A DNA stretch of 64,000 nt. Source: Psilocybe cubensis (taxonomy: Eukaryota). This document shows positions 46,980-59,930 of the stretch, one piece after another. Positions within the stretch are counted from its first letter, which is position 1. Each line of letters begins with the position of its first letter. Location of the stretch: contig CM039006.1 in assembly GCA_017499595.2 (NCBI GenBank), positions 2,170,001-2,234,000 of the forward strand, written 5' to 3'. A program made the translations under genes and the position numbers. Under the pieces are notes generated by a model. That model worked only from the letters and a program-made list of their open reading frames with translations. It did not search any database and was not told the origin of the DNA.

Positions 46980-49526
46980 CTAATTATCAGGATAATCGGT
47001 GCTGAATGTCAGTGCTTTCCATTTCTCCAGCCTAGCCAAAGTTTTCTCGCATTCTTCCTTCACCGCGTTATAGCAGTCTTGCCCGAGTGCAAACCCAGAC
47101 GGAATTTCATCGTCGCTCAGTACCGCCGCCAGTCCTTCCCTCTTGACTACGTCAATAATGACGTTCACCCCTCGCTCTGGGTCACCCTTCTGTTTTCCGT
47201 TAAGGGCTGTATGGATCCGTTATTAGCAGGTCAAATAATCAAAACAATATGAATAGGAATAGGCATCATACAAAATAGTAAAGTGTTATTGCTATGCCCT
47301 GCTTCATTGTAAGCATCAATGTTTGAAACTATCGGGGCAATGTGATCTATAATCTGTGTACGGAAGCACCCAGAATCAAAACAGATGCTGCGAAGTCCAA
47401 ACTGGGAGATCTCTTGGTTTAATGTATCCGCCATTCCTGCAGCATCAAAAACAAATTTTCAGTATGCGTTTAATTGTCTTATGGGCAGTTAGAATCTGTT
47501 TTTTTACCTCGAAGAGCAAACTTGCTCGCGTTGTATAGTCCAGTAAAGGGGAAGGGACTGGAAATAGTTTATTATTATTTGTCAAAAGTGGAATTGAAAG
47601 GAAAGTTGCGTACGCCCATCCAAAGCAGGATCCGATAAAGCAGATGGTGCCGGTGCCTCGCTCACGCATATGGGGAAGGAAAGTGCGAGAGACGTTAAGT
47701 GCACCAAATAGGTTTGTACTTTAAACGTATGAGCCCTTTTCCATATTATTGGATCACGAACATCGCGAAAACCGCCAAAAACATGCATTGCCTTTGTACC
47801 CTTTTAAGGTAAGTCAGGAATTAGCCGACCTTACCAAGCCAATCCAAACATTTGTTGACCTTGGATTGCCTTTGAAAGGTTAGTGAATTATTAACTGATC
47901 TTTGCTTGGGATTTTAATATCTGTTCTTATTGTAAGTCATAGCAAAATATTTCAGATGTATGTATAATCAGAGAATTATAAATTCTACCTTATTTTCCAA
48001 TATAATTATATGCTTTGCCTTATATTGTGTTGTAAAGCTTTAGAAAAATATTTCCTTGTTAATGAAATCTTACCTGAAAATTGAAAGGCAAACCAATATC
48101 TAGATTAGTAGTGTAGGTTATTCATTGATTTTTAGTTATTATATTGATTGTTCAATATTTATAACCACGGGGCGCTCCTCACTGCTCAGAGCAAGCTCAG
48201 AGACAAAGTTCCGTGAGAGATCACATGACATAGAGTCAGACATTGGGGCCACGGAAATTGGGGACGGGGACTCTAAAAGACCGTCGCACAACTCAAAACA
48301 ACTCTGTCAAGGCTTTTCACTTCCCCATCTTCAAGAAATTAAATGGTAAGAATTTCTTCCTAACTTGTGAGATTCCTGCCGTATAACCTCTAGCAAGTAT
48401 ACAGTTCCAACAGTACTAGCACACATGTGGGACTGGGTTTGGCTGGTCAGATAGTAAGTGCACATCATATTCTGTACCATCTATTCCACAATGTACTCGT
48501 TTTCAACACGAAGGTGACCGACTATCTGATTCTCGCACTCGGTCTCGTTCTTGCACTTGGTCTCATTCTCGCACTCGGTCTCGTTCTCGCACTCGCACTC
48601 GCACTCGGTCTCGTTCTCGCTTTTAGCGTAGTTTTTTTGCTCTGCTGTTTTGACTTCTACAGTAGCTTTTTTTACTACACGTGTATTTGTATTCAGTTGG
48701 TTAATAAGCAATTTGTACATTTCTGGATACCGGCGGCCAAGCCAGAAAGAGTGAAATAAGATTCATTAATGAGCGCACATCTTTGCAAAGTTACCCAGCT
48801 TTGCAAGGGCAATTAAAGATTTGCCCTGCCTTCAAAGGTCAACTAAGAATGACCAAAAGTTACAAAGGATTCGCAATGTTGCTAATTATAACGTGTCCTT
48901 ACTTGTAAGTGCTTACAAGTAAGGCCATTTATAATCTTTGTGTCCTTAGTGCCATTTGTTACCTTTATTAGCAATGTATTATCTGGCAAACTTATGGCGG
49001 TTTTCGCGATGAAGTGAAGCTTACTTGAACTGTGCCAATGAGTCCTCGTGTCTGAGGAAGTGTTAATATCAGAATCTTAAAATATAGCAATGTCAATGTG
49101 TACGATGTTTCTTCCAAGCTTCCACGCAAGGCAAACCCTAACCAAGGCCCGTGATAAGCACCACAGCAGTAAAAAGCAAGCATTATATAAAAATCTTACC
49201 AGCGTTATTCATGACGACGTCCACACGGCCATAGACCTTGACCGCTTCCGCTGCAACTTCCTTCAAATGATCTAAACTCGCCGTAACGTCGAGTTCCATT
49301 ATGTGCGCCCCAATTTCCGTCAAGTTCCTGATGGTGTCGAATGACTTTGCACGTGTAGTGGCTATGACAAGATCGCCTCGCTTGATGGCCGCAATCGCAA
49401 GCGCTCGACCTATTCCAGACCTGCAGTGTTAAGGTATAAGTGTTAATGCACTCCTGACAATTGTCTACTGATGTGATCAACATACGAGCATCCGGTGATG
49501 AGCCAAACAAGAGGTGCAGCAGGCAT
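46980..49526 (-). CDS. Short-chain dehydrogenase/reductase, copy 1, with a transposon in one intron
   Basis: MPAAPLVWLITGCS|SGIGRALA, VVMNNAG, TNLFGALN, catalytic YNASK and C-terminal STDYPDN*. The spliced frame appears intact. Intron 47719-49024 is enlarged by an insertion. Confidence 0.85.
47761..49011. mobile_element. Non-autonomous CACTA/Plavaka-type DNA transposon (1251 bp)
   Basis: Perfect 17-bp TIR catcgcgaaaaccgcca / tggcggttttcgcgatg with a 2-bp TSD AA (47759-60, 49012-13). Removing it restores a 53-nt intron. Contains a subterminal palindrome at 48897-48924. Confidence 0.88.
48530..48620. repeat. Minisatellite of ~18-bp units (tctcgcactcggtctcgt) built from 6-bp subunits
   Basis: Directly visible. 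It generates the spurious LALGLV / ENETEC ORFs. Confidence 0.85.
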
Positions 49527-51155
49527 GTTAGATAAAGTTAAAGCTGGTATGTGATGAGGGTTTCGTATCAAAGGGTTAAATGGCAGGGATTCCATGTCAG
49601 CTTTTTACTTTTATACTTCGACATTTCCGACTCGCCACACAGGGGGTACCAAAAAGCTTACAATGTCCGGTCCGATAAGCTAAATTTGCTGTCTGCAGCT
49701 GTCCAGCTAATGCGCTGCCGAGGCTGAGAAATTTGTTCGACAAAAACCCAACGGTGTCAGCTGGTTCCGTTAAGATTTTAATGTATCCATTGCTCACTTA
49801 CGCACCACATGGAGCTTGGAGCTACTGTAAAAGCAGAAATTGATACTAAGACTCGTCCCGTAGATGCCTATGTAAAGTATGTTTTAATTCCTCTCTATAT
49901 AAAGAACAGTCTTATCTTTGATTTCAATCTGTAAATTCGAAACTAGACAGCCCAAGTTACCCCATCAGGAATTTCACTCTCAGTCAACAAAAAAGACAAG
50001 ACATATTTTAGAAAATAAATGTTCCTTGGGACTTCGGTTCTTAATCAATTTGACAGCCAAAATGATTTCACGGCTGTATAAAATGTCAATGGACAAATTT
50101 GAACAAAGGAATTACTGAGTCCCGGAGTAGCTAGTTGCTGTCTTGAGAAAGATCTAACAGATTTTTTTTTAGCTATGGCCTCTATAGTCTAGAAATTCTC
50201 CCATACTATTTGATAAATTACTGGATGTGACACGGCGAGCCTACTACGTACTAACCGATGAACACTTACATGCCAGAGTGTTATTTCTTGCCATTGTAAT
50301 CCCATATATTCTACTTTTGAATGACGCGGCTCACCTTTTCTTATATTGCGCACGCATCCCAGTTCTTGATCTTTTAGTATCACGAGTGCGTCTTACCCCT
50401 GCACTTTCTTGGTGTTGTTACAATAGGCCACATGCAAATCATATTTAATGTGTGTGATGTAGTATTGACGTTGATAAAGTTGGGAAAGGTATACGAGAAC
50501 TGCAATAGAACTGCTAAGTACTATGGATGGAAGGAAGCTAATGTGAAGGGGCAGCTCCTTAAGCCTCGTTTGACTTAGACAACGTTCAAGTGCATGTGCC
50601 ACAGATGATCCCTTGACCTTTAGATATGCAGGTCCAGATAGCTAATACGTAGTAGATCTATGTAGAGCGGCCCTTAGGGCCATTCACTCGTGTATCTTAG
50701 CATTCCGATTGCTTGATACACGATAACAACCAGATTGAAAAAGCTTCTAGTTTCATCAGCAAAAGTGACCAGACGCCCAAATGCCTTTGAGGCCTTATAG
50801 GGCAGGTCAATCCTTGATGTGACGTAATTATGTTGCGCAAACATTTGAATAATATTTGGTGGTGTCGAAAACATTTGGAGGGCATTCAAATGCTCCACAA
50901 ACATTTGACATCCCAAAAATGCAGTATAAATTATTTCAGGTTCTTGCAGTGAACACCCAATCATTGGTTTACCATAGAACTTTCAGAGAATGCTTGAGAA
51001 AAATTAAAATGGAGAACAAAACATTGATTTTAAATTGACGTCCACAGCAATGATTGAAGGTCTTTCAAATGCACGCAAAACAAATGAATGGATTCAAATG
51101 CACTCAAAATGATTTATGCATCAGAAAACCTATTCAACGTACAGATAAGGTAAGG

Positions 51156-54100
51156 TTAAAACTCTGCAAAACCCACGGCTTCTGTATCATCCATATCCCA
51201 GGGCTCCTCCCCATCTTCTCCCACAAAACCTTCATCGTTCTCCTCATCTTGATCTTCTTTCTCTGACTCGTCACTGTTTTCAGACTCTGAAGCGTTCATG
51301 GCAGCCTCTTGCTCAGCTGTAACGGGTAAATCAACTTCTTCTTCGTCATCTAAAGGTTCTTCATCACTGAGGTTGAAGTAGGAACCAAAATACCACGGTC
51401 GCATGCTTCGCGTGTACTCGTTGGTGCCCTTGTGGCCAATACCGTAGCCTAGATAGCGTACAAACATGTCACGATCCACGAAACTTATCATACATTAGCA
51501 ATATGTATCAAATAGAATAAATAAAACAACACAGCGTACCGGTTAACATAATAGAAATTCCAGTCGTGGTCTGGATAGTTGTCATCTTCCCAGTAGGCTT
51601 GCCGAGCAATGGAGGGGGGAAGAAGGGAGTCAGTCATCCCCAAATTAAATGCCGGAATAATATGTGAGGCCCTGAGTATATCAGAGGGGTTGAGGAAGCC
51701 AAACGCATCCGGGGAATCCGAATCAATGAACTTGAGTCGGTCTAATCGGCGTGCAGTCCACCCCGCACGAAAGGCATAGTCGACTTCAAACCATCTTACC
51801 CACAGAAATTCAAAACGTTGTGTTTTACCTCCGTTATGCTGTATGTCAGCGTCGAAGATACCAAGAACTCGAGCATACGAATAAGGGTGGGCCATAGAGC
51901 GACCTGAGTCCCCGTCCCGAGAGAGAGTCATGATATTACAATGGTTCCGAGGATTGATAGAATCTTGCTCGCGTCGTACGTCGTAAGTTGTATAGTTGAC
52001 TCGCAGGACTTTGTGCAAGTAAATTCGGTCGCTAAGGATGTTCACCTGTGCGCGCTCTTGGTCTGAATATGTACGGACTTGTCCTGTATTCGAATGGCCA
52101 AGTATTCGAGATAATATATGATCTTCGAGGTTAGAAACAAAGTCCTAATGTTTGAGCGAGTATTATTAGCACAGGTTGCAGTAAAGAATGGAGAGAAAAT
52201 TACCTCCGTAACTGCTGGGTCATCACAGTATTCGTTCATAAACTGAAACAAATACAGTTTATGGCGCTTGCTGGTCGATATTTGATGGTGCTCGGACGGT
52301 GAGATAGGAGGGAGACTCTCAGATTCCGAAGCTGAGACGATGTGTGGGGGTTTGATATACGATTTCTTAACACGCGAAGCCCTCGGACGCTTCTTGGACG
52401 GCTGTGCAGTGGCCTGCTTATCCTTTGAAGTTGAATTGGCCTTTTCGCTAGCCTCACTTTCTTCCAGTCTTGAAACCCGTGCAGCAATAGAGCGGAGCAA
52501 CTGCTCACGACGCTCATGACGAGAAATTTGGCGCTCAAACTGAGACCCCTTGTTGCTGCGTACAAAAAACCGTTTGACGCGACGGTGTTCCAATTCGCCC
52601 TGAGAGTAGTTAATATAATGTTGTAGTAACAAAAAATGACATACCCGTTGAGTAGAATAACCCTCTGTTGGGCCAAACATCCAGATAGTCTTGACATAAT
52701 CTCCGAGAGCGTGAAGCTTATACGTGAAGAGGTTCAGCATTTTGGAAACCTTCGCATTCAGAGACCCAGGAGCGGTGGGCTTGCCCTTCTTTGCATTATT
52801 GGCGGCACGACGGGCGCGGGCAGCGGTCTCCTTTGGTAGTTCCTTGGTTGCGTACAGCGGACAGATCTTAGAGACAAAAGATCTGAGCTCCTTGCCTAGT
52901 TGACGAGTGGCGACACCAAGTCCTGTAAGCGTGGAGTTGGTATGCATGCGAAGCTTGGCGAGCGCGTGCCATTCACAGAATGTGAAGAGAATGTCTTGAA
53001 TAAATTTATCCTGCGCCGGAGGAAGGAGGCCTTCAAAGACTGGCATGGAGCACTAGATAGAGCATATTAGTGTTCCGTAACGTGGAACGATGGCAAATCA
53101 TTTATACGTACCTGAAGTAAGTCTTCAAAATCTCGGGCTGCAAGCTTGGTCATGTCCGATGCATTGCGGTGGAAACGGCGTATTGTGCTTCGGCCAAACG
53201 TAGACACTTTGCGATATCTATTGGCAGGTGAATGCACGAAATTTAAATGATAATATATAGTACTTACCTCCAGTTGAGACGCTGAACACAGTTGCCACCA
53301 GCGGCCAGAAGAATACGCATCATATGCGTGAAGAAAGACTTCCAAACACCAAGTTCGAACTCGTGTAGGAAGTCAGGTACAAACATGGTATGAAAATTGA
53401 ATCCAAATTTTGAAAGACGTGTTGAGAATGCATTCTACACAAAGGTTAATCGTTGTAAGAAGGGGTAAAATGGATCAACGTACCCGTGTTGGGACGGCCG
53501 ACGTATCCTGAAGGATATCTTCTACACGTGTGCTTTTGACCCCCTTTCCATGTTTGAAGATCCACTTTCGACTATTCTCAACCCTGTCGCGCCGTTGCTG
53601 ATCGTCTTTGCGAATGTGCGAGCGCCGCTGTTGATCAACATGAGTTCCAAGTCCACTTACCCAGCGCTTCTGAATAAAGCACCGAGGACAGACACATTTT
53701 GCGAGGTAGCGGATGGTGGCAAGAAGGACTCTGAAGGTATGACTTGGTACGGCATAGACCAGAGTAAACAAAACAGACTTACTTCTCAGGATAGTCGGCG
53801 GAGTATGTAAAAAACCGGGGAAACACACGACGTATGACACCATCGGCACATTTAATAATGATGCCATGTTCGTAGGCTTCCATGAATTCCTCGTCGAGAA
53901 GAATGAGCCATACGGCATGCATCAGCTCCCGCTTTAGGTGGGTGATTGTTGCTGCCGTTGCTGTCAGACCGTTGTAAGCTTTCATATAGATGTCTTGTAG
54001 GGTTTTGGGCAGCTAGTCACATATATAGTTAAACGAACAGAAAACAGAATGAGAACAATGAACATACCGATGGTAAATACGCAATGTGGTGCGCTGAGAA

Positions 54101-55495
54101 GCTATTGGGATTCGCACGTACGTACTTTGATTGATTGCCAAATAGCAGGTATAACGGCCAGAGTGATGCGTTGCCAAAGTTAGCAAGCTGGGTCGAGTCT
54201 GACCACAGCATCAACGCAACAATAGCAATTTCGTGGGTATCGCTAAGTTGCGCTTCCTGATTCTGCTGTTTACAAAGATCGACATATTCATCGTAAAATG
54301 CGTCGGAGTTGTAGATCTCCGTAATGACGCGCTCTGGTGGACTCGAGGGCGATGGCTTCCAGAAAAGATGATGCGGTGTGAAATGCCATGATTCCGCGCT
54401 TTCATCCTGAAGGGCGGCCTTGATCGTGCCTACCAAACTCCGATAATAGACATTTGGTACCTCAAGGACTGGTGCTGCATCCTCGGAAGGGTGTAGCGAC
54501 TGCTCGCAAGGAAGAGGTATTTTGACAGTTGCATTGATCCAGCCTGCTTCCTGTCTGAACGTTGATTGTGAACTTTCGGGTGCGGAAGTCGCATTGTCCA
54601 TGCGAGCGAGTTCCCGTTTCGCACTAAAGTTCTCCAAATCTTTGACACAGAAATCCTCGGCAAGCAGAACCTCCCGGACCAAGCGATCAAGCTCACCCAC
54701 GGATTTCAGGGTAGTATTGCCATAGAACCAATGCATAAGGCGAAAAACCGTAGCATTCAAGAAAGGCGCAAAGCGGTTGGACACAGAAGCTTTGTCTAGG
54801 GATATTCCCATAACCTTGGCAATCCGAGAACTTGATTCCTTTGGGATAGAGGTCGCCAAGCCAGGTGCATTGCAAAGATTGTCGAGTTCCTCGAAGTCAT
54901 CAACCTCCTGTCTGGGAAAAGTTGGATATTCCCGGTACAAACCAAACTCGTTGGGCAGAGTGCGTGTTACGGTGGGTTCAAAAGAAGGAGCCGGCTCCGG
55001 AGTTAGTTCGTGTGGAGAAACAGGCTTTGGAGCAGATCGTCGGACTCGAGGAATGGGGGGAGGCATATGAGGTATACGGGTCGACGAGTTGGGTAAAAAG
55101 TCAACATGTTTTTTGGGATATTTACGTACACGTCCCAAACGCGTAGGAGGAGGGACAAACCCCTCAGGAAATGGGTCAGGGGGATCAGATCTTGGAGGCA
55201 AAATAACACCGTCGTCGATATTCTCGTAGGTCATAGAAACATCCTCCCATTCGGCATCCTGAAAGTATTCATTTGTCAGTATAATGTGTGTCGAAGCGGT
55301 GGACCATACCTTATTGAGTTCATGATTAACGGTGGTGTCAATCTTGACACGCTTCGCACTTCCAGTATCCCGGTCAACATCAAGCGGCTTGCAGACATTT
55401 TCAAGGTCTGCTTGCACAGCAGCACAGGTGATGCGGTGAATTCGAACTGCGTGCTTTGTTTTGAATGTCTTCTCGCAAGCATCGCAAATGACCAT
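51156..55495 (-). CDS. Plavaka-family transposase, multi-exon, apparently intact
   Basis: N-terminal C2HC finger (CDAC...HRITC), LWSDSTQLANFGNASLWPLY, YSADYPEK|VLLATI..CVCPRC, PDFLHEFELGVWK, AARDFEDLLQ, YKLHALGDY, GELEHRRVK, NYTTYDVRR, FLWVRWF and FVDRDMF. All splice junctions I checked stay in frame. Confidence 0.9.
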
Positions 55496-55715
55496 GATGA
55501 TAAGAAACAACAAAATAGAATGCCGCATTGCAGCATGCAATGCGCATGGAGACAAAAAAGAGGTCAAGAAGGTAATATTGACCAGAAAACACGCGTCGCG
55601 ACGCATCAGAAAAGATCACGTGTCCGTTCTCAACGGGCTTTTTCGGAAAACCTGAAACCTTTTGCCCTGTCCCATCACCATCTCCCTACTCTGCAACCAC
55701 CTACCTCGGGATTCC

Positions 55716-57862
55716 ATGGCTCCAGCCTCACAGATTCACACTGCAGACGCACAACCCCCACATTCCACTCAGCATGCAAAATCTCGAGAATCAATCAGCA
55801 GCAGTGACGGCAGCAATGAAGACAGCAGCGGCTCGGATACTGACCAAGACCATAAAGAAGAGGTGGTTATCAAAAAGCGCAAGAAGGCTTTGAAGGTTAC
55901 GTTTCGTAAAAGGGCCTCTCGCAAAAAATTAAAGTCTTCGTGCGTATTGTGTTTTTTCAAGTTTAAGTTTACTACTGAATGCGCATTGCTGTCACCTAGC
56001 GCGGTACTCGAGCCCTTTATGCACCATTCGGCATGGCACATTCGCAATGGTGCTATCTACACCAACTGGGAACACGTTATTCTCACCGGCTTGAAGGCCG
56101 AGCAGGGGAAATTTGGCTCTCTTACACAGCAGGAGTAAGTAACTTTATTATTTACCCGATTTGGTCTCTTTTGTTTAAACTTTTTACTACTTTAGGTTTG
56201 CGGAGAAGCACAAAAAAGCACTTTCGGCTTACGACGATCTGCGAGCGGCTATTCCCACCTTTGACGATGATATAAAGGTCATCGCAAGGGACCCCGCTTA
56301 CCTAGACAGACTGTGCAAAACGGTATGAGTACCTATTTCTCATACACGTACATCTAATGTCCTATTCAGATGGTTACTGCCGCCGGAACCGCTCGTTCTA
56401 ACGACATCTCAAGCCTCAAGAAGGATGCACTTACCTATGCAGCACTGTGCCTGCCTGATGGTCGCCTGGATCCTCCCATTAACCCAAACGACTCCAAGAA
56501 GACGACCCGAGGCTTCAAGCACCCGCAACTTGGTGCGCTTTTAGTTCCCGCCGCCTGCTTTGAACAGTATCAAAATGATCCCGAGTAAGTCACCCGTATT
56601 TATATGCGTGTCATACTGATTTTGTTTTTGAGGTATCGTCGCAATCTCTCTCTCAACAAGGTTGTTATCAAGGCAAAGGCAATGCCACACCTGGTGTATC
56701 CGTATGGTAAGTACGACCCCGAGCATGTATTGGAAGGGATGTTCATGGCTCCGGCCTTGGTCGCGGTGCGTATTTTGTGTTGCTGTCTTCAGTACTACTT
56801 ACGCATGTTATCAGGTTTTTCAACATATATTTATGTCGCCATCCTCGGCGCTGAAGACACCTGGCATTACACGGACCGGACATGGGAAGGCTCGCAAGCA
56901 TCACATGAAGTCAGTTACGATACCGAGCATTGCATATGCATGCACACATGTACGTGTTTTTTTCCACATGTTGTATATACTAACCATGTCATCAGTATCG
57001 GTACGCTATTTCGGGATGTATGGACTGGCGTCAGAACGATAGGCATTTCAACTACGAAGAGTTCTACATGGAGGTTGTAAAAATGCTGGAGTGGGCTCGA
57101 GAAAATGATCCCGAGTGGTGGAAAGACTTTGTTACATGGTGGAACGCGTGCGTAGTTTCTTTTTTACAATTAAATTATATAACTCAAACAGTTCATCCTA
57201 GGCAAGTTTTCCCTGTCGAAGACGACTCCGTTACCGAGAGCAGTTCATCTGACGAAGAGATGACTACGTCTACCTTCAAGAAAATGAAGGCACAGGTGAA
57301 GGCCAGCCGTGCAGCGAGGGATATTCCTGCCAACTCTGCACCACCACCACCACCACCATCTCAATATCAGCGCGAGATGTTGTCGCCATCGCCGCCCTTG
57401 TCGTTAAGGCCTGTTCAGTCTCCGGCACCGGGTTCATCTATTCCACCAAGTGTAGGTATTCCTGGCCGGCAGCACCATGCTCAATACCTTGCCGGCCCAG
57501 TGGACGCCAACATTGACCCCCGTTTACAGATCCCAGGTCCTCATGTTGCTAGCAACCACCCACCTCTCGGTGGACCTTCTCGATATCCTGCAGGTGTTCC
57601 TCTGTTTTACAACTCATCGCACCCTATTGCTAGTGCCTCCACTCCGGCTCCGGCTCTGTCTCGTGGTCATCCAACCCCGCGCGCACTCTCTTCCAGTGTC
57701 TACACTCAACAGTTCAATAATTCTCCGGAATGGCAGCTGGAGAATACCTACGACGAGTCATACTTTGCCGACCACACAAGGAAGAAGAACCATATTGGTC
57801 ATCGTCATCCCAGTGTAGGTCCCCAGATGAATCCGGTCTTCCCTGACATAACAAACTGGTAA
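55716..57862 (+). CDS. Transposon cargo gene, DUF6698-like fungal protein with a Pro-rich tail
   Basis: Spliced exons with ARSNDISSLK, RGFKHPQLGALLVP, YDPEHVLEGMF, FQHIFMSPSSA, SIAYAC and FNYEEFY..WWN. Lies inside the TIRs, divergent from the transposase. The family name is from recall. Confidence 0.7.
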
Positions 57863-58614
57863 GCTCACCTAATCATTCTGCAAGTTATCATTACTGATAA
57901 GGCTTTAGATTCAACTGCTACTATTATTCTCTTGGTGCTCTGGCCTCTCTCGCTACTGTCAACTTCTCGTTCTTGCTCGGCTCTCCTCTCACTCATGTTG
58001 CATTTTGGACTTCTCGGCGACAGCTCTGGCTTCCATTCGACGGCGAAAATCATGTAATTATAGTCTGCTTGCATTCTGTTTGCTCGGTTACCTGTACTTG
58101 TAGCCTCCCTGTCTGTATTGTTATTTTTTAAATTGCAATTTCGCTTTCCATTGTTTATTACTGTGTGTGATGGCCTGAAGTAGCCGCTAGGAATAAGGGT
58201 ACCCAAGAAATGTGCATTGAGTGAATCCCAAATGATTTTGGGTCTCCTAAATGTTAGATAAATGATATTGGGACCCTCAAATGTTATCCAAATGTTTCAT
58301 GTACTCTTAAATGTTGCGGAATGATTTGGCTATATTTAGTACTACCTAAAACATTTGCTTTGAATAAAGAATTCGAAGCCTTTCAGTCTTCGGAGTCTCT
58401 CGTTACGAACCGCACAATGCCTTTCGGGCATTGGGGCCTTTGGACGCCTCCAAATGCCTTGTCAAGGCATTTGGGGATCCGGACACTTTTGCTGATGTTG
58501 GCTTGAAAAGGAAATTATGTTTCCCACAATATCTACATTGTACAATGTTCCCTATTCAATGAAAGCCCGGGCCTTGGACGCTATACTTTGTGACATCTTT
58601 GGGTTTGCTGTTAG

Positions 58615-59930
58615 CTAATTATCTGGGTAGTCTGTAGCCAGAGAAACGGGCTTCCACTCTTCAAGCCTAGCTAGCGTATTTTCGCAATGCTTCTTCACAG
58701 TCTCATAGCTATCACTTCCAAGTGCAAAGCCGGGATGGACTTGTCTCCCGGTTGCCATTCCCTCTCCCCTAATAATGTCAATTATAGTATAAGCACCACG
58801 GACTGTATCCCCTTTTTGAGTCCCTTTGTATGCTGTGTTGATGTATCGACAAAAAAAGTAAGCTCCAGACATGAATGTAACAGAATGATTCATACCGAGC
58901 AGAGTCGCATTGGCACTTTCACCGGCATCTTTATATGCATCAAGAATGGGAACCCATTTCGGGAGCTTCTCTATTATGGGAGTGCGGAAGGCGCCAAAGT
59001 CAAAACAAATACTGCGAAGTCCGAAAGGCGCAATTTCCTCATGTAGTGTGTCGGATATTCCTAAATGCAACCAGATGAAAAGGTGGTAAAATAAGGTGCA
59101 CTAAGTCTCTGTATGTGAAGTTCTACTGACCTCGAATGGCAAATTTGCTTGCGACGTAGAGCCCACAGAAGGGCACGGGTCTAAATTCGGATTGACAACT
59201 TGATCAAAAGTGCAACACATTAAAATAAAAGGGACTTACCTCCACCCATAGCAGGATCCGATGAAGGAAATTGTGCCAGTCCTTTGCTTGCGCATGTATG
59301 GAAGAAAAGCACGAGCCACGTTAAGAGCCCCGAAAACATTTGTACTATGGGATCCGTATTAGCATTGAGTGCACCTCTGGTATCATAAATTATACGCAGC
59401 CAAATAACTCACTTGAATTGAGTAAGAGTTTCCTCGTGGCTGAGTATTATTGCAGTAGTGAGCAGAGGTTTTGTAATATGCTGTTTACTAGAAAATACTT
59501 ACGTAGTTTCTTCAAAGCTTCCTGGCATGATAAATCCTAAACAATACAGACAGACAGTTGAAACGCTGAGCACCAAAGAAAAGTAATATAAAACCACCTA
59601 CCAGCGTTATTTACAACCACATCAACCTTCCCATAGACGACGATAGCTTCTGCAGCGACAGCTTTAAGCTTATCTATGCTTTCGGTGACATCAAGAACCA
59701 TGACGTGAGCACCCAGGTCCTTCAAGTCTTTGATGGATTCAAAGGATCGCAGTCGTGTAGTAGCTATAACATGATCTCCCCGCTCGAGTACTGCAATAGC
59801 GAGCTCACGACCTATGCCCGACCTGCAGCATCGTGAGTAAGTCGTTCATGCCGCATAAAATTAGAGGTTTGGGGTATAAGTAAACGCACGAGCATCCGGT
59901 AATAAGCCAAACGAGAGCTGTAGAAGACAT
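58615..59930 (-). CDS. Short-chain dehydrogenase/reductase, copy 2
   Basis: MSSTALVWLITGCS|SGIGRELA, VVVNNAG, TNVFGALN, YVASK and C-terminal ATDYPDN*. Same exon layout as copy 1. Confidence 0.88.

Follow-up and report, generated by a model that had tools for sequence, protein, structure and literature searches.

A DUF6698 gene beside the transposase of a PlavakaB transposon in Psilocybe cubensis

The element and its two genes

This analysis concerns a DNA transposon of Psilocybe cubensis, and in particular the second of its two genes, which encodes a protein of the DUF6698 family. The element lies in a window of 64,000 nucleotides, the whole stretch of DNA analysed (assembly GCA_017499595.2, contig CM039006.1, positions 2,170,001 to 2,234,000 of the forward strand; coordinates below are window positions). 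It spans 50754-58497, or 7,744 bp, is an intact-looking member of the PlavakaB group, and occurs as one copy only within the window. Its left part holds a gene for a Plavaka transposase on the minus strand and its right part the DUF6698 gene on the plus strand, the two being transcribed away from each other. The data give good support to the reading developed here, in which the second gene is an accessory gene borne by the element and does not belong to the host.

The element is bounded by terminal inverted repeats (TIRs) of 34 nt, the left at 50754-50787 (plus strand, first letters CATCAGCAAAAG) and the right at 58464-58497 (minus strand, last letters CTTTTGCTGATG), which are 88% complementary to each other. 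Immediately outside them the sequence reads TT on the left (50752..50753) and TT on the right (58498..58499), as for a target site duplication (TSD) of 2 bp, and the termini themselves read CATCAG..CTGATG. The available text of Kojima 2025 (PMC12730594) characterises PlavakaB by termini 5'-CATCA..TGATG-3' and TSDs of 2-3 bp, a description with which the termini, TIRs and 2-bp TSD of the window element all agree; in addition its first 12 bases are shared with PlavakaB-2_PiTi, as given in the available part of the supplement of that paper. The same source places Plavaka in the CMCT clade (EnSpm/CACTA-Mirage-Chapaev-Transib). An earlier note on this DNA, made from the sequence alone, had spoken of Plavaka and KDZ transposases together; on the evidence of PMC12730594, as far as its available text goes, Plavaka belongs with the EnSpm/CACTA clade and not with KDZ. 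Inside the termini, short repeats of the motif CAAATG/CATTTG are clustered, with eight copies in the left 397 bp (50778..51100) and six in the right 317 bp (58229..58473). Across the window as a whole the hexamer shows no enrichment (52 observed, 55.7 expected).

The transposase gene (51156..55495, minus strand) encodes about 1,270 aa, is interrupted by several introns and is apparently intact. Its exon pieces match the Pfam Plavaka family (PF18759) at E 3.4e-13 and 2.8e-8, with 50.0 and 33.8 bits at a cut-off of 26.3. When a P. cubensis paralogue, the full-length PF18759 protein P0155 (1,273 aa), was compared with the window by tblastn, it aligned over residues 1-1273 of itself, the window transposase being 70% identical to it. 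Six of the high-scoring segment pairs are free of stops and the seventh (53732-53103) contains two, which we read as due to that segment crossing introns.

The second gene (55716-57862) comprises eight exons, separated by seven GT..AG introns of 46-61 nt, and encodes 593 aa; the model is letter-identical to the annotated protein P0001, 'hypothetical protein JR316_0004757 [Psilocybe cubensis]'. Exon 1 (55716..55939) contains a Ser/Asp-rich start and a basic stretch resembling a nuclear localisation signal, KKRKKALK..RKRASRKKLK, of which KKRKKALK forms residues 53-60. Exons 2 (56000..56134) and 3 (56196..56322) follow; the Pfam domain begins in exon 4 (56370..56584, E 2.3e-11), continues through exons 5 (56633..56765) and 6 (56815..56949, E 7.9e-12) and ends in exon 7 (56996..57147, E 6.2e-10), while exon 8 (57202..57862) encodes an acidic/Ser stretch, one predicted helix (residues 398-413) and a Pro-rich tail, with the stop codon at 57860-57862. 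The intron preceding exon 5 has an unusual acceptor, GAG, yet is consistent with the annotated protein. Of six translated pieces from this region four match Pfam DUF6698 and two do not, and the full protein matches DUF6698 (PF20414) over residues 166-377 at E 3.3e-56 (190.7 bits, cut-off 23.7), spanning profile positions 2-206 of 206. Besides DUF6698, a Pfam scan of P0001 at E<=0.01 yields only a sub-threshold match to DUF6532.

Between the two genes lies a divergent spacer of 220 bp (55496..55715), presumed to be a bidirectional promoter, which holds two palindromes. One, GCGTCGCGACGC at 55593-55604, is a perfect 12-nt palindrome with a single occurrence in the window and none in 100 shuffles; the other, CGCATTGCA-GCA-TGCAATGCG at 55524-55544, has 9-bp arms and a 3-nt loop. 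The anatomy drawn in the earlier note is borne out by these data. It had described a multi-exon gene of a DUF6698-like family with an NLS-like KKRKKALK stretch, and the model, the annotated protein and the full-length Pfam match all agree; it had set the two starts, on opposite strands, about 220 bp apart with a palindrome in between, and the ATGs at 55495 (minus) and 55716 (plus) are separated by exactly 220 bp, a spacer that contains GCGTCGCGACGC; it had put the end of the gene about 635 bp before the right TIR, and 635 bp is the distance from the end of the stop codon (57862) to the outer end of that TIR (58497). Likewise, the CAAATG repeats that it had mentioned are those now counted near both ends.

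The protein has three parts, namely the Ser/Asp-rich and then strongly basic N-terminus, a structured core and a Pro-rich tail. In the AlphaFold2 model the core comprises about 300 residues, and over most of the stretch 80-380 the predicted local distance difference test score (pLDDT) exceeds 90; the tail (residues 425-593) has a pLDDT below 50 and is modelled as disordered. A homologue of the size of the domain, P0038 (301 aa), gives a mostly helical model with pLDDT 94.7 and a predicted template modelling score of 0.92. Structure prediction with a fold search, proposed in the earlier note as a check, yielded a confident helical model and no solved match: for the whole-protein model the best Foldseek E is 0.37 and the best Z of a wide VIA search 5.6 over 63 residues, and for the P0038 model the best values are E 1.8 (Foldseek), Z 5.5 (wide VIA) and Z 2.8 (a second structural comparison), scores that lie within the noise range for helical models and that probe mainly the N-terminal ~100 residues of the model. 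A sequence profile compared with Protein Data Bank (PDB) chains gave a best E of 0.45. The predicted all-alpha fold thus appears to have no convincing solved counterpart, and novelty of the fold is not claimed.

Five residues (R, K, R, H and Y) hardly vary across the family. This pattern brought to mind a tyrosine recombinase or topoisomerase IB, an idea that found no structural support in the fold searches: Foldseek lists the vaccinia topoisomerase 1a41 at E 6.8, with Z below 2 in the second comparison, and no recombinase is present in the top 50 of the wide fold search. A complex prediction of the N-terminal 488 aa of the transposase with DUF6698 residues 75-420 scored 0.02, a value which speaks neither for nor against binding.

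Copies of the element and the relatives of its second gene

Evidence for mobility comes from annotation and from sequencing runs. The annotation contains exactly this 593-aa sequence twice, as JR316_0004757 and JR316_0010121, which lie on different contigs. In addition, DNA runs X1 and X3, which derive from a diverged strain, were assembled over window positions 49500-59500. The flanks differ from the window at 16 letters in 548 (X1) and at 19-28 in 780, and the interior of the element at 2 letters in 3104 and at none in 4514. The X1 and X3 contigs begin exactly at 50754, and loose contig ends at 50751 and 58498/58499 lead into at least three unrelated flanks; no empty insertion site was recovered in the runs assembled over this interval. 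The summed depth in X1 is 213 over the transposase half, 179 over the DUF6698 half and 54 over the flanks, and in X3 it is 66, 59 and 17, such that both genes are covered alike at about three times the flanks; since summed word depth is not copy number, these figures can be used only as consistent with several two-gene copies. The element looks intact and recently mobile. The placing of the second gene inside the TIRs, as the earlier note had it, therefore applies to an element found at several sites (55716-57862 within 50754-58497), and where that note had considered that the gene might be absent from other copies, the near-identical copies seen all keep it intact.

Within the right subterminal region a stretch of 141 bp (58320-58460) reaches a depth of 1436 in X1 and 328 in X3, about 25 times the flanks. 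Because the depth there is far above that of the rest of the element, it suggests that many shorter (non-autonomous) relatives, or related families, share this right end. A variant joint that bypasses 58256-58431 was also seen in the DNA runs.

DUF6698 is a very large family. At the level of 50%-identity clusters its matches number 1,058 at E<=1e-3, 450 at 1e-10 and 18 at 1e-30; the clusters are apparently all fungal, and all 50 aligned relatives match Pfam DUF6698. The P. cubensis annotation includes at least eight distinct members, and in A. bisporus one cluster (>=90% identity) occurs at four loci. The single-copy state expected of a host gene is thus not observed, the family being multi-copy in P. 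cubensis with the window copy inside TIRs. The ratio of nonsynonymous to synonymous substitution rates (dN/dS) has a median of 0.20 over 23 pairs of open reading frames (ORFs) and is below 0.5 in 21 of them, and the family is under purifying selection. Among the P. cubensis paralogues the structured core is conserved far more than the tails.

How often do these relatives stand next to Plavaka transposases? Comparison of the locus tags of 27 DUF6698 proteins (the window's close paralogues left out) with those of 86 long Plavaka homologues placed four of the 27 within two tags of a transposase, a lower bound, as the Plavaka list is a partial catalogue. The pairs are CVT24_009969/009970 and CVT24_007512/007510 in Panaeolus cyanescens, on single contigs of 19.7 kb and 15.6 kb respectively, JR316_0001493/0001494 in P. 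cubensis, where the transposase belongs to a second Plavaka family and is 46% identical to that of the window, and LshimejAT787_0101390/0101380 in Lyophyllum shimeji. A fifth DUF6698 protein, from Panaeolus papilionaceus, is on the same 457-kb contig as a transposase; for the remaining 22 no neighbour from the Plavaka list was found. Similarly, PF18759 is followed by PF20414 within a single gene model in three of the 86 Plavaka homologues (Gloeopeniophorella convolvens, Mycena venus and Mycena pura).

A third line of evidence is a metagenome scan with eight typical family members, in which 531 stretches matched, 436 encode a relative and 80 loci were kept. A tblastn search with pieces of the window transposase, and then with 82 Plavaka proteins, found a transposase at four of the 80 (L056, L057, L062 and L071), all four belonging to the 21 loci whose upstream sequence reaches 3.5 kb or more. 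Two more, L020 and L033, terminate in an ORF like the N-terminal zinc finger of Plavaka and are left out of the linkage count. Around L024, L027, L043, L056, L057, L062, L071 and L072, where the right flanks are mostly short, no convincing enclosing pair of TIRs was detected.

The fourth line is phylogenetic. In a FastTree phylogeny of 112 rows and 280 anchored columns (three of 115 rows, with fewer than 180 residues, having been dropped) the Plavaka-linked members fall into four separate branches. The distance matrices of transposase and DUF6698 for seven linked pairs (L056, with no anchored hit, is not in the set) are correlated, with a Mantel Spearman r of 0.56 and a permutation p of 0.011; DUF6698 diverges in step with its linked transposase. 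By these four independent lines, namely locus tags, fusions, metagenome and tree, the pairing is general for part of the DUF6698 family; in this element, as in other Plavaka lineages, the gene is built into the transposon, is conserved and moves with it.

These observations bear on further claims of the earlier note. Its central proposition, that this is not a host gene, is upheld by the position of the gene inside the TIRs of a multi-site element and by relatives that adjoin or are fused with Plavaka in five genera (Psilocybe, Panaeolus, Lyophyllum, Mycena and Gloeopeniophorella) and on metagenome contigs. Homologues that are mostly single-copy, syntenic and unlinked, which it had named as a possible counter-indication, are not what we found: they are multi-copy and linked in several genera. 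Of the adjacencies that it had proposed to count, four of 27 by tags, three of 86 by fusion and four of 21 loci are linked, the other 17 of these loci having no transposase within reach. The head-to-head layout, finally, holds for the window, where the genes are 220 bp apart, and fails for the relatives, where a tandem same-strand order of transposase and then DUF6698 is usual (L057, L062, L071 and the three fusions); in L056 the two genes are divergent and about 4.5 kb apart.

At the relatives' loci other genes are met. In the clade that the metagenome scan sampled, the usual divergent neighbour is a small, conserved two-exon Cys-rich gene lying head-to-head with DUF6698 (L007:902-1746, minus strand; also L003, L008, L009, L013, L016, L021-L028, L071 and others), with motifs like CLCP..C..CGYFG and RPGLTE.EF..LF.KC.CG..TRR.F..H.C and, after these, V[IV]DLT and an acidic C-terminus. 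No Pfam family matches this gene, and in the Atlas it falls into unnamed Basidiomycota clusters only, with a weak lead to a GRF zinc ribbon (0.82). Six metagenome ORF clusters, which represent this small gene, the N-terminal finger of Plavaka and plus-strand ORFs on the upstream side that probably are N-terminal exons of DUF6698 genes, have no homologue in the window at E<=0.01. ORFs with a CCPxC motif occur near DUF6698 at L024:16110-16517, L040:1251-1658, L043:2718-3092, L043:4404-4769 and L075:1826-2203, and two of these give weak, sub-threshold matches to an OTT_1508-like deaminase (19-22 bits, cut-off 27).

Some DUF6698 genes have extra, conserved N-terminal exons upstream of the domain on the plus strand (L005:8746-9605, L006, L030, L070, L073 and L080), with the motifs HPGE..WCW...HIPLC..D.QLWA and YPQYE..L...G..YL...F.ADFY...VGM..GAA, which are absent from the window protein. 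Among the 22 longest DUF6698 representatives none contains a Plavaka domain, their extra parts being unrelated genes or Helitron. In P0089 (1,254 aa), for example, a single gene model combines DUF6698, DUF6570 and a Helitron helicase-like N-terminal domain, and in further long models DUF6698 is attached to HSP70 with AA9 or to ATP-citrate lyase; such models are probably chimeric annotations produced where transposons have inserted.

The genes that flank the element in the window are two paralogous short-chain-dehydrogenase-like genes on the minus strand, at 49183-49428 and 58550-59845, with the element between them. In run X4, guessed to be RNA, a contig spans 58550-59439 with four introns of 63-70 nt removed, and because of this the dehydrogenase-like neighbour is probably expressed. 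A second run guessed to be RNA, X5, gave no cover of the interval. The X4 cover is confined to that neighbour and has no bearing either way on expression of the genes of the element.

Interpretation and rival explanations

Taken together, we hold that the second gene is probably encoded by an intact, recently mobile PlavakaB transposon, and that DUF6698 is a Plavaka-associated accessory family of Agaricomycetes rather than a host family; that this particular gene is a true accessory gene of Plavaka is, in our judgement, quite likely. Several observations weigh on the other side. A TT/TT match of 2 bp is by itself weak evidence of a duplicated target, arising once in 16 cases by chance. Most relatives with readable flanks are unlinked: of the 21 loci that extend 3.5 kb or more upstream, 17 are without a Plavaka transposase, as are all six that extend 3.5 kb or more downstream, and the Cys-rich gene, not a transposase, is the divergent neighbour at 23 of the 42 loci that have 1.5 kb or more on the upstream side. 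Fusion with DUF6698 is seen in only three of the 86 transposase models, and many Plavaka copies may thus lack it. The co-divergence could be produced by shared host ancestry alone, because kin share labels. The varying order and orientation of the two genes are as compatible with a cargo module as with a core component. A Pfam scan of the second protein found no DNA-binding or other known domain, and the published PlavakaB families, so far as the available text of PMC12730594 describes them, carry TET/JBP instead.

How might the protein act? Both genes would be transcribed divergently from the 220-bp spacer, acting as a shared bidirectional promoter; the basic N-terminal stretch would carry the protein into the nucleus; and there the all-alpha core may act on the DNA or chromatin of the element itself, so helping its transposition. 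The maize transposon En/Spm encodes a second protein, TnpA, which binds its subterminal repeats. By analogy, the likeliest mode of action of the DUF6698 protein would be binding to the CAAATG subterminal repeats and assembly of the ends for the transposase. We place a TnpA-like role first because the anatomy of the element fits it and because the clade of the transposase has a known factor of this kind. Given an accessory gene, end binding or transpososome assembly would still be a tentative assignment, anti-silencing a fainter possibility, and the remainder would fall to some other role. A full two-gene Plavaka system, in which a nuclear DUF6698 protein recognises family-specific subterminal repeats and either recruits the transposase in the manner of TnpA or strips silencing marks in the manner of VANC, as a non-enzymatic alternative to the TET/JBP of sister Plavaka families, is a speculative proposal that we regard as rather doubtful in its entirety.

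Anti-silencing ranks second. VANC, encoded by the MuDR-type VANDAL elements of Arabidopsis, is a lineage-specific, fast-evolving anti-silencing protein. The DUF6698 protein could similarly guard its own element from DNA methylation or heterochromatin, as a functional alternative to TET/JBP; like VANC, it is fast-evolving and lineage-specific, with a fold lacking a solved counterpart. We rank this possibility where we do because sister PlavakaB families carry TET/JBP as cargo (PMC12730594, available text), while none of 59 ORFs of at least 100 aa around five DUF6698 loci with Plavaka signs matches Tet_JBP; four of these loci hold a transposase (L056, L057, L062, L071) and one, L033, the N-terminal finger only. 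In the window itself the second protein gives no Tet_JBP match, its confident models being almost entirely helical, and the element has no room left for a third gene, such that one cargo may replace the other. In L062 an ORF (L062:1535-1918, plus strand) located some 1.5 kb upstream of the transposase matches JmjC hydroxylases at E 2.3e-6 (28.5 bits, cut-off 24), which could be a host gene or could hint at chromatin-related cargo in relatives. Pfam scans found no catalytic or chromatin-reader domain in the second protein, and as an explanation in its own right anti-silencing seems to us unlikely.

A different kind of explanation would make the gene a mere passenger, that is, a member of a selfish or neutral family, possibly a module with the Cys-rich neighbour, that Plavaka has captured repeatedly and that plays no part in transposition. 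DNA transposons, including those of the CACTA type, are known to capture genes, and the variation in orientation and spacing relative to the transposase, the unlinked majority of members with readable flanks and the presence of the Cys-rich gene at nine of the 21 loci with long upstream sequence (at L071 in the order transposase, Cys-rich gene, DUF6698) would all fit. However, linked members in four branches of the tree, with distances that track those of the transposases, are better explained by long co-inheritance than by repeated capture; purifying selection acts across the copies, the gene has stayed intact in all the near-identical copies seen, and no host-like single-copy subfamily was present among the 27 proteins looked up. 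We consider the passenger explanation improbable. That an ordinary host gene lies between chance inverted repeats, or that the boundary of the element is misdrawn, might draw on the single copy in the window and the weak 2-bp duplication, but is hardly credible given contigs of two DNA runs that break exactly at both termini into different flanks, an interior almost unchanged between flanks that differ by 2-3%, an identical protein annotated at two loci and termini that fit the published PlavakaB signature. In order, then, a TnpA-like role comes first and anti-silencing second, and the passenger explanation retains its small share.

What is new here is a two-gene transposon of the CACTA clade whose second protein comes from a new family. 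None of the papers searched names DUF6698/PF20414, an earlier mention in the founding paper of Iyer et al. 2014 being possible, and a search for Plavaka with an accessory gene returned the red-alga preprint 10.1101/2025.02.11.637652 alone. The association provides the first biological context for a very large Pfam domain of unknown function (1,058 clusters). It also implies that annotators who count DUF6698 genes as host genes inflate the 'lineage-specific gene family expansions' of mushroom genomes. With its two genes and its defined ends and repeats, the element offers a compact test system for an accessory protein of the CACTA clade and possibly a starting point for an Agaricomycete transposon tool, and an experimental structure would be informative because the confidently predicted fold is without a solved counterpart. 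If the two-gene system were true, a family of about 1,000 clusters together with its Cys-rich partner would represent an unrecognised layer of transposon-host conflict in Agaricomycetes.

Comparison with known systems

The closest functional model, TnpA of En/Spm, is likewise a second protein within the same broad clade, and En/Spm also has short motifs clustered in both subterminal regions. The two differ in that DUF6698 is a separate, divergently transcribed gene, whereas TnpA arises by alternative splicing within a single transcription unit; moreover, the scan of P0001 at E<=0.01, which gives DUF6698 and DUF6532 only, shows no homology to plant TnpA (Pfam Transposase_24). VANC resembles the DUF6698 protein as a lineage-specific, fast-evolving accessory protein without known domains that is encoded beside a transposase, although it belongs to another transposon superfamily and another kingdom. 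It is mentioned in the available text both of PMC12730594 and of 10.1101/2025.02.11.637652.

The nearest other family is DUF6532 (PF20149), also confined to Basidiomycota and a separate Pfam entry, with which only the C-terminal half aligns. For P0001 the match is sub-threshold (23.2 bits, cut-off 24), four of 50 family members give one at E<=0.01, and a language-model feature score is 0.95. In some Ganoderma genomes DUF6532 is listed with KDZ, Plavaka and CxC2 as extra domains, according to the available part of PMC8955403.

Within Plavaka itself, the giant red-algal elements also carry accessory genes that travel with the transposase, PAG1-3, of which PAG1 is without known function; as described in the available text of 10.1101/2025.02.11.637652, on which the comparison is based, PAG2 and PAG3 have methylase/SET and ParB/2OG-oxygenase domains, where DUF6698 has none. 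The published PlavakaB elements are the most similar of all, sharing with the window element a Plavaka-domain transposase, the CATCA..TGATG termini, a 2-bp TSD and an Agaricomycete host (PMC12730594). Kojima 2025 distinguishes TET-positive from TET-negative Plavaka families, its available text mentioning no further encoded protein, and the only fungal cargo described there is TET/JBP, whereas the window element has DUF6698 and no TET/JBP. The preprint 10.1101/2025.02.11.637652, again in its available text, ascribes to basidiomycete Plavaka 'just one accessory gene', TET/JBP, and its claim of a single kind of accessory gene is thereby qualified.

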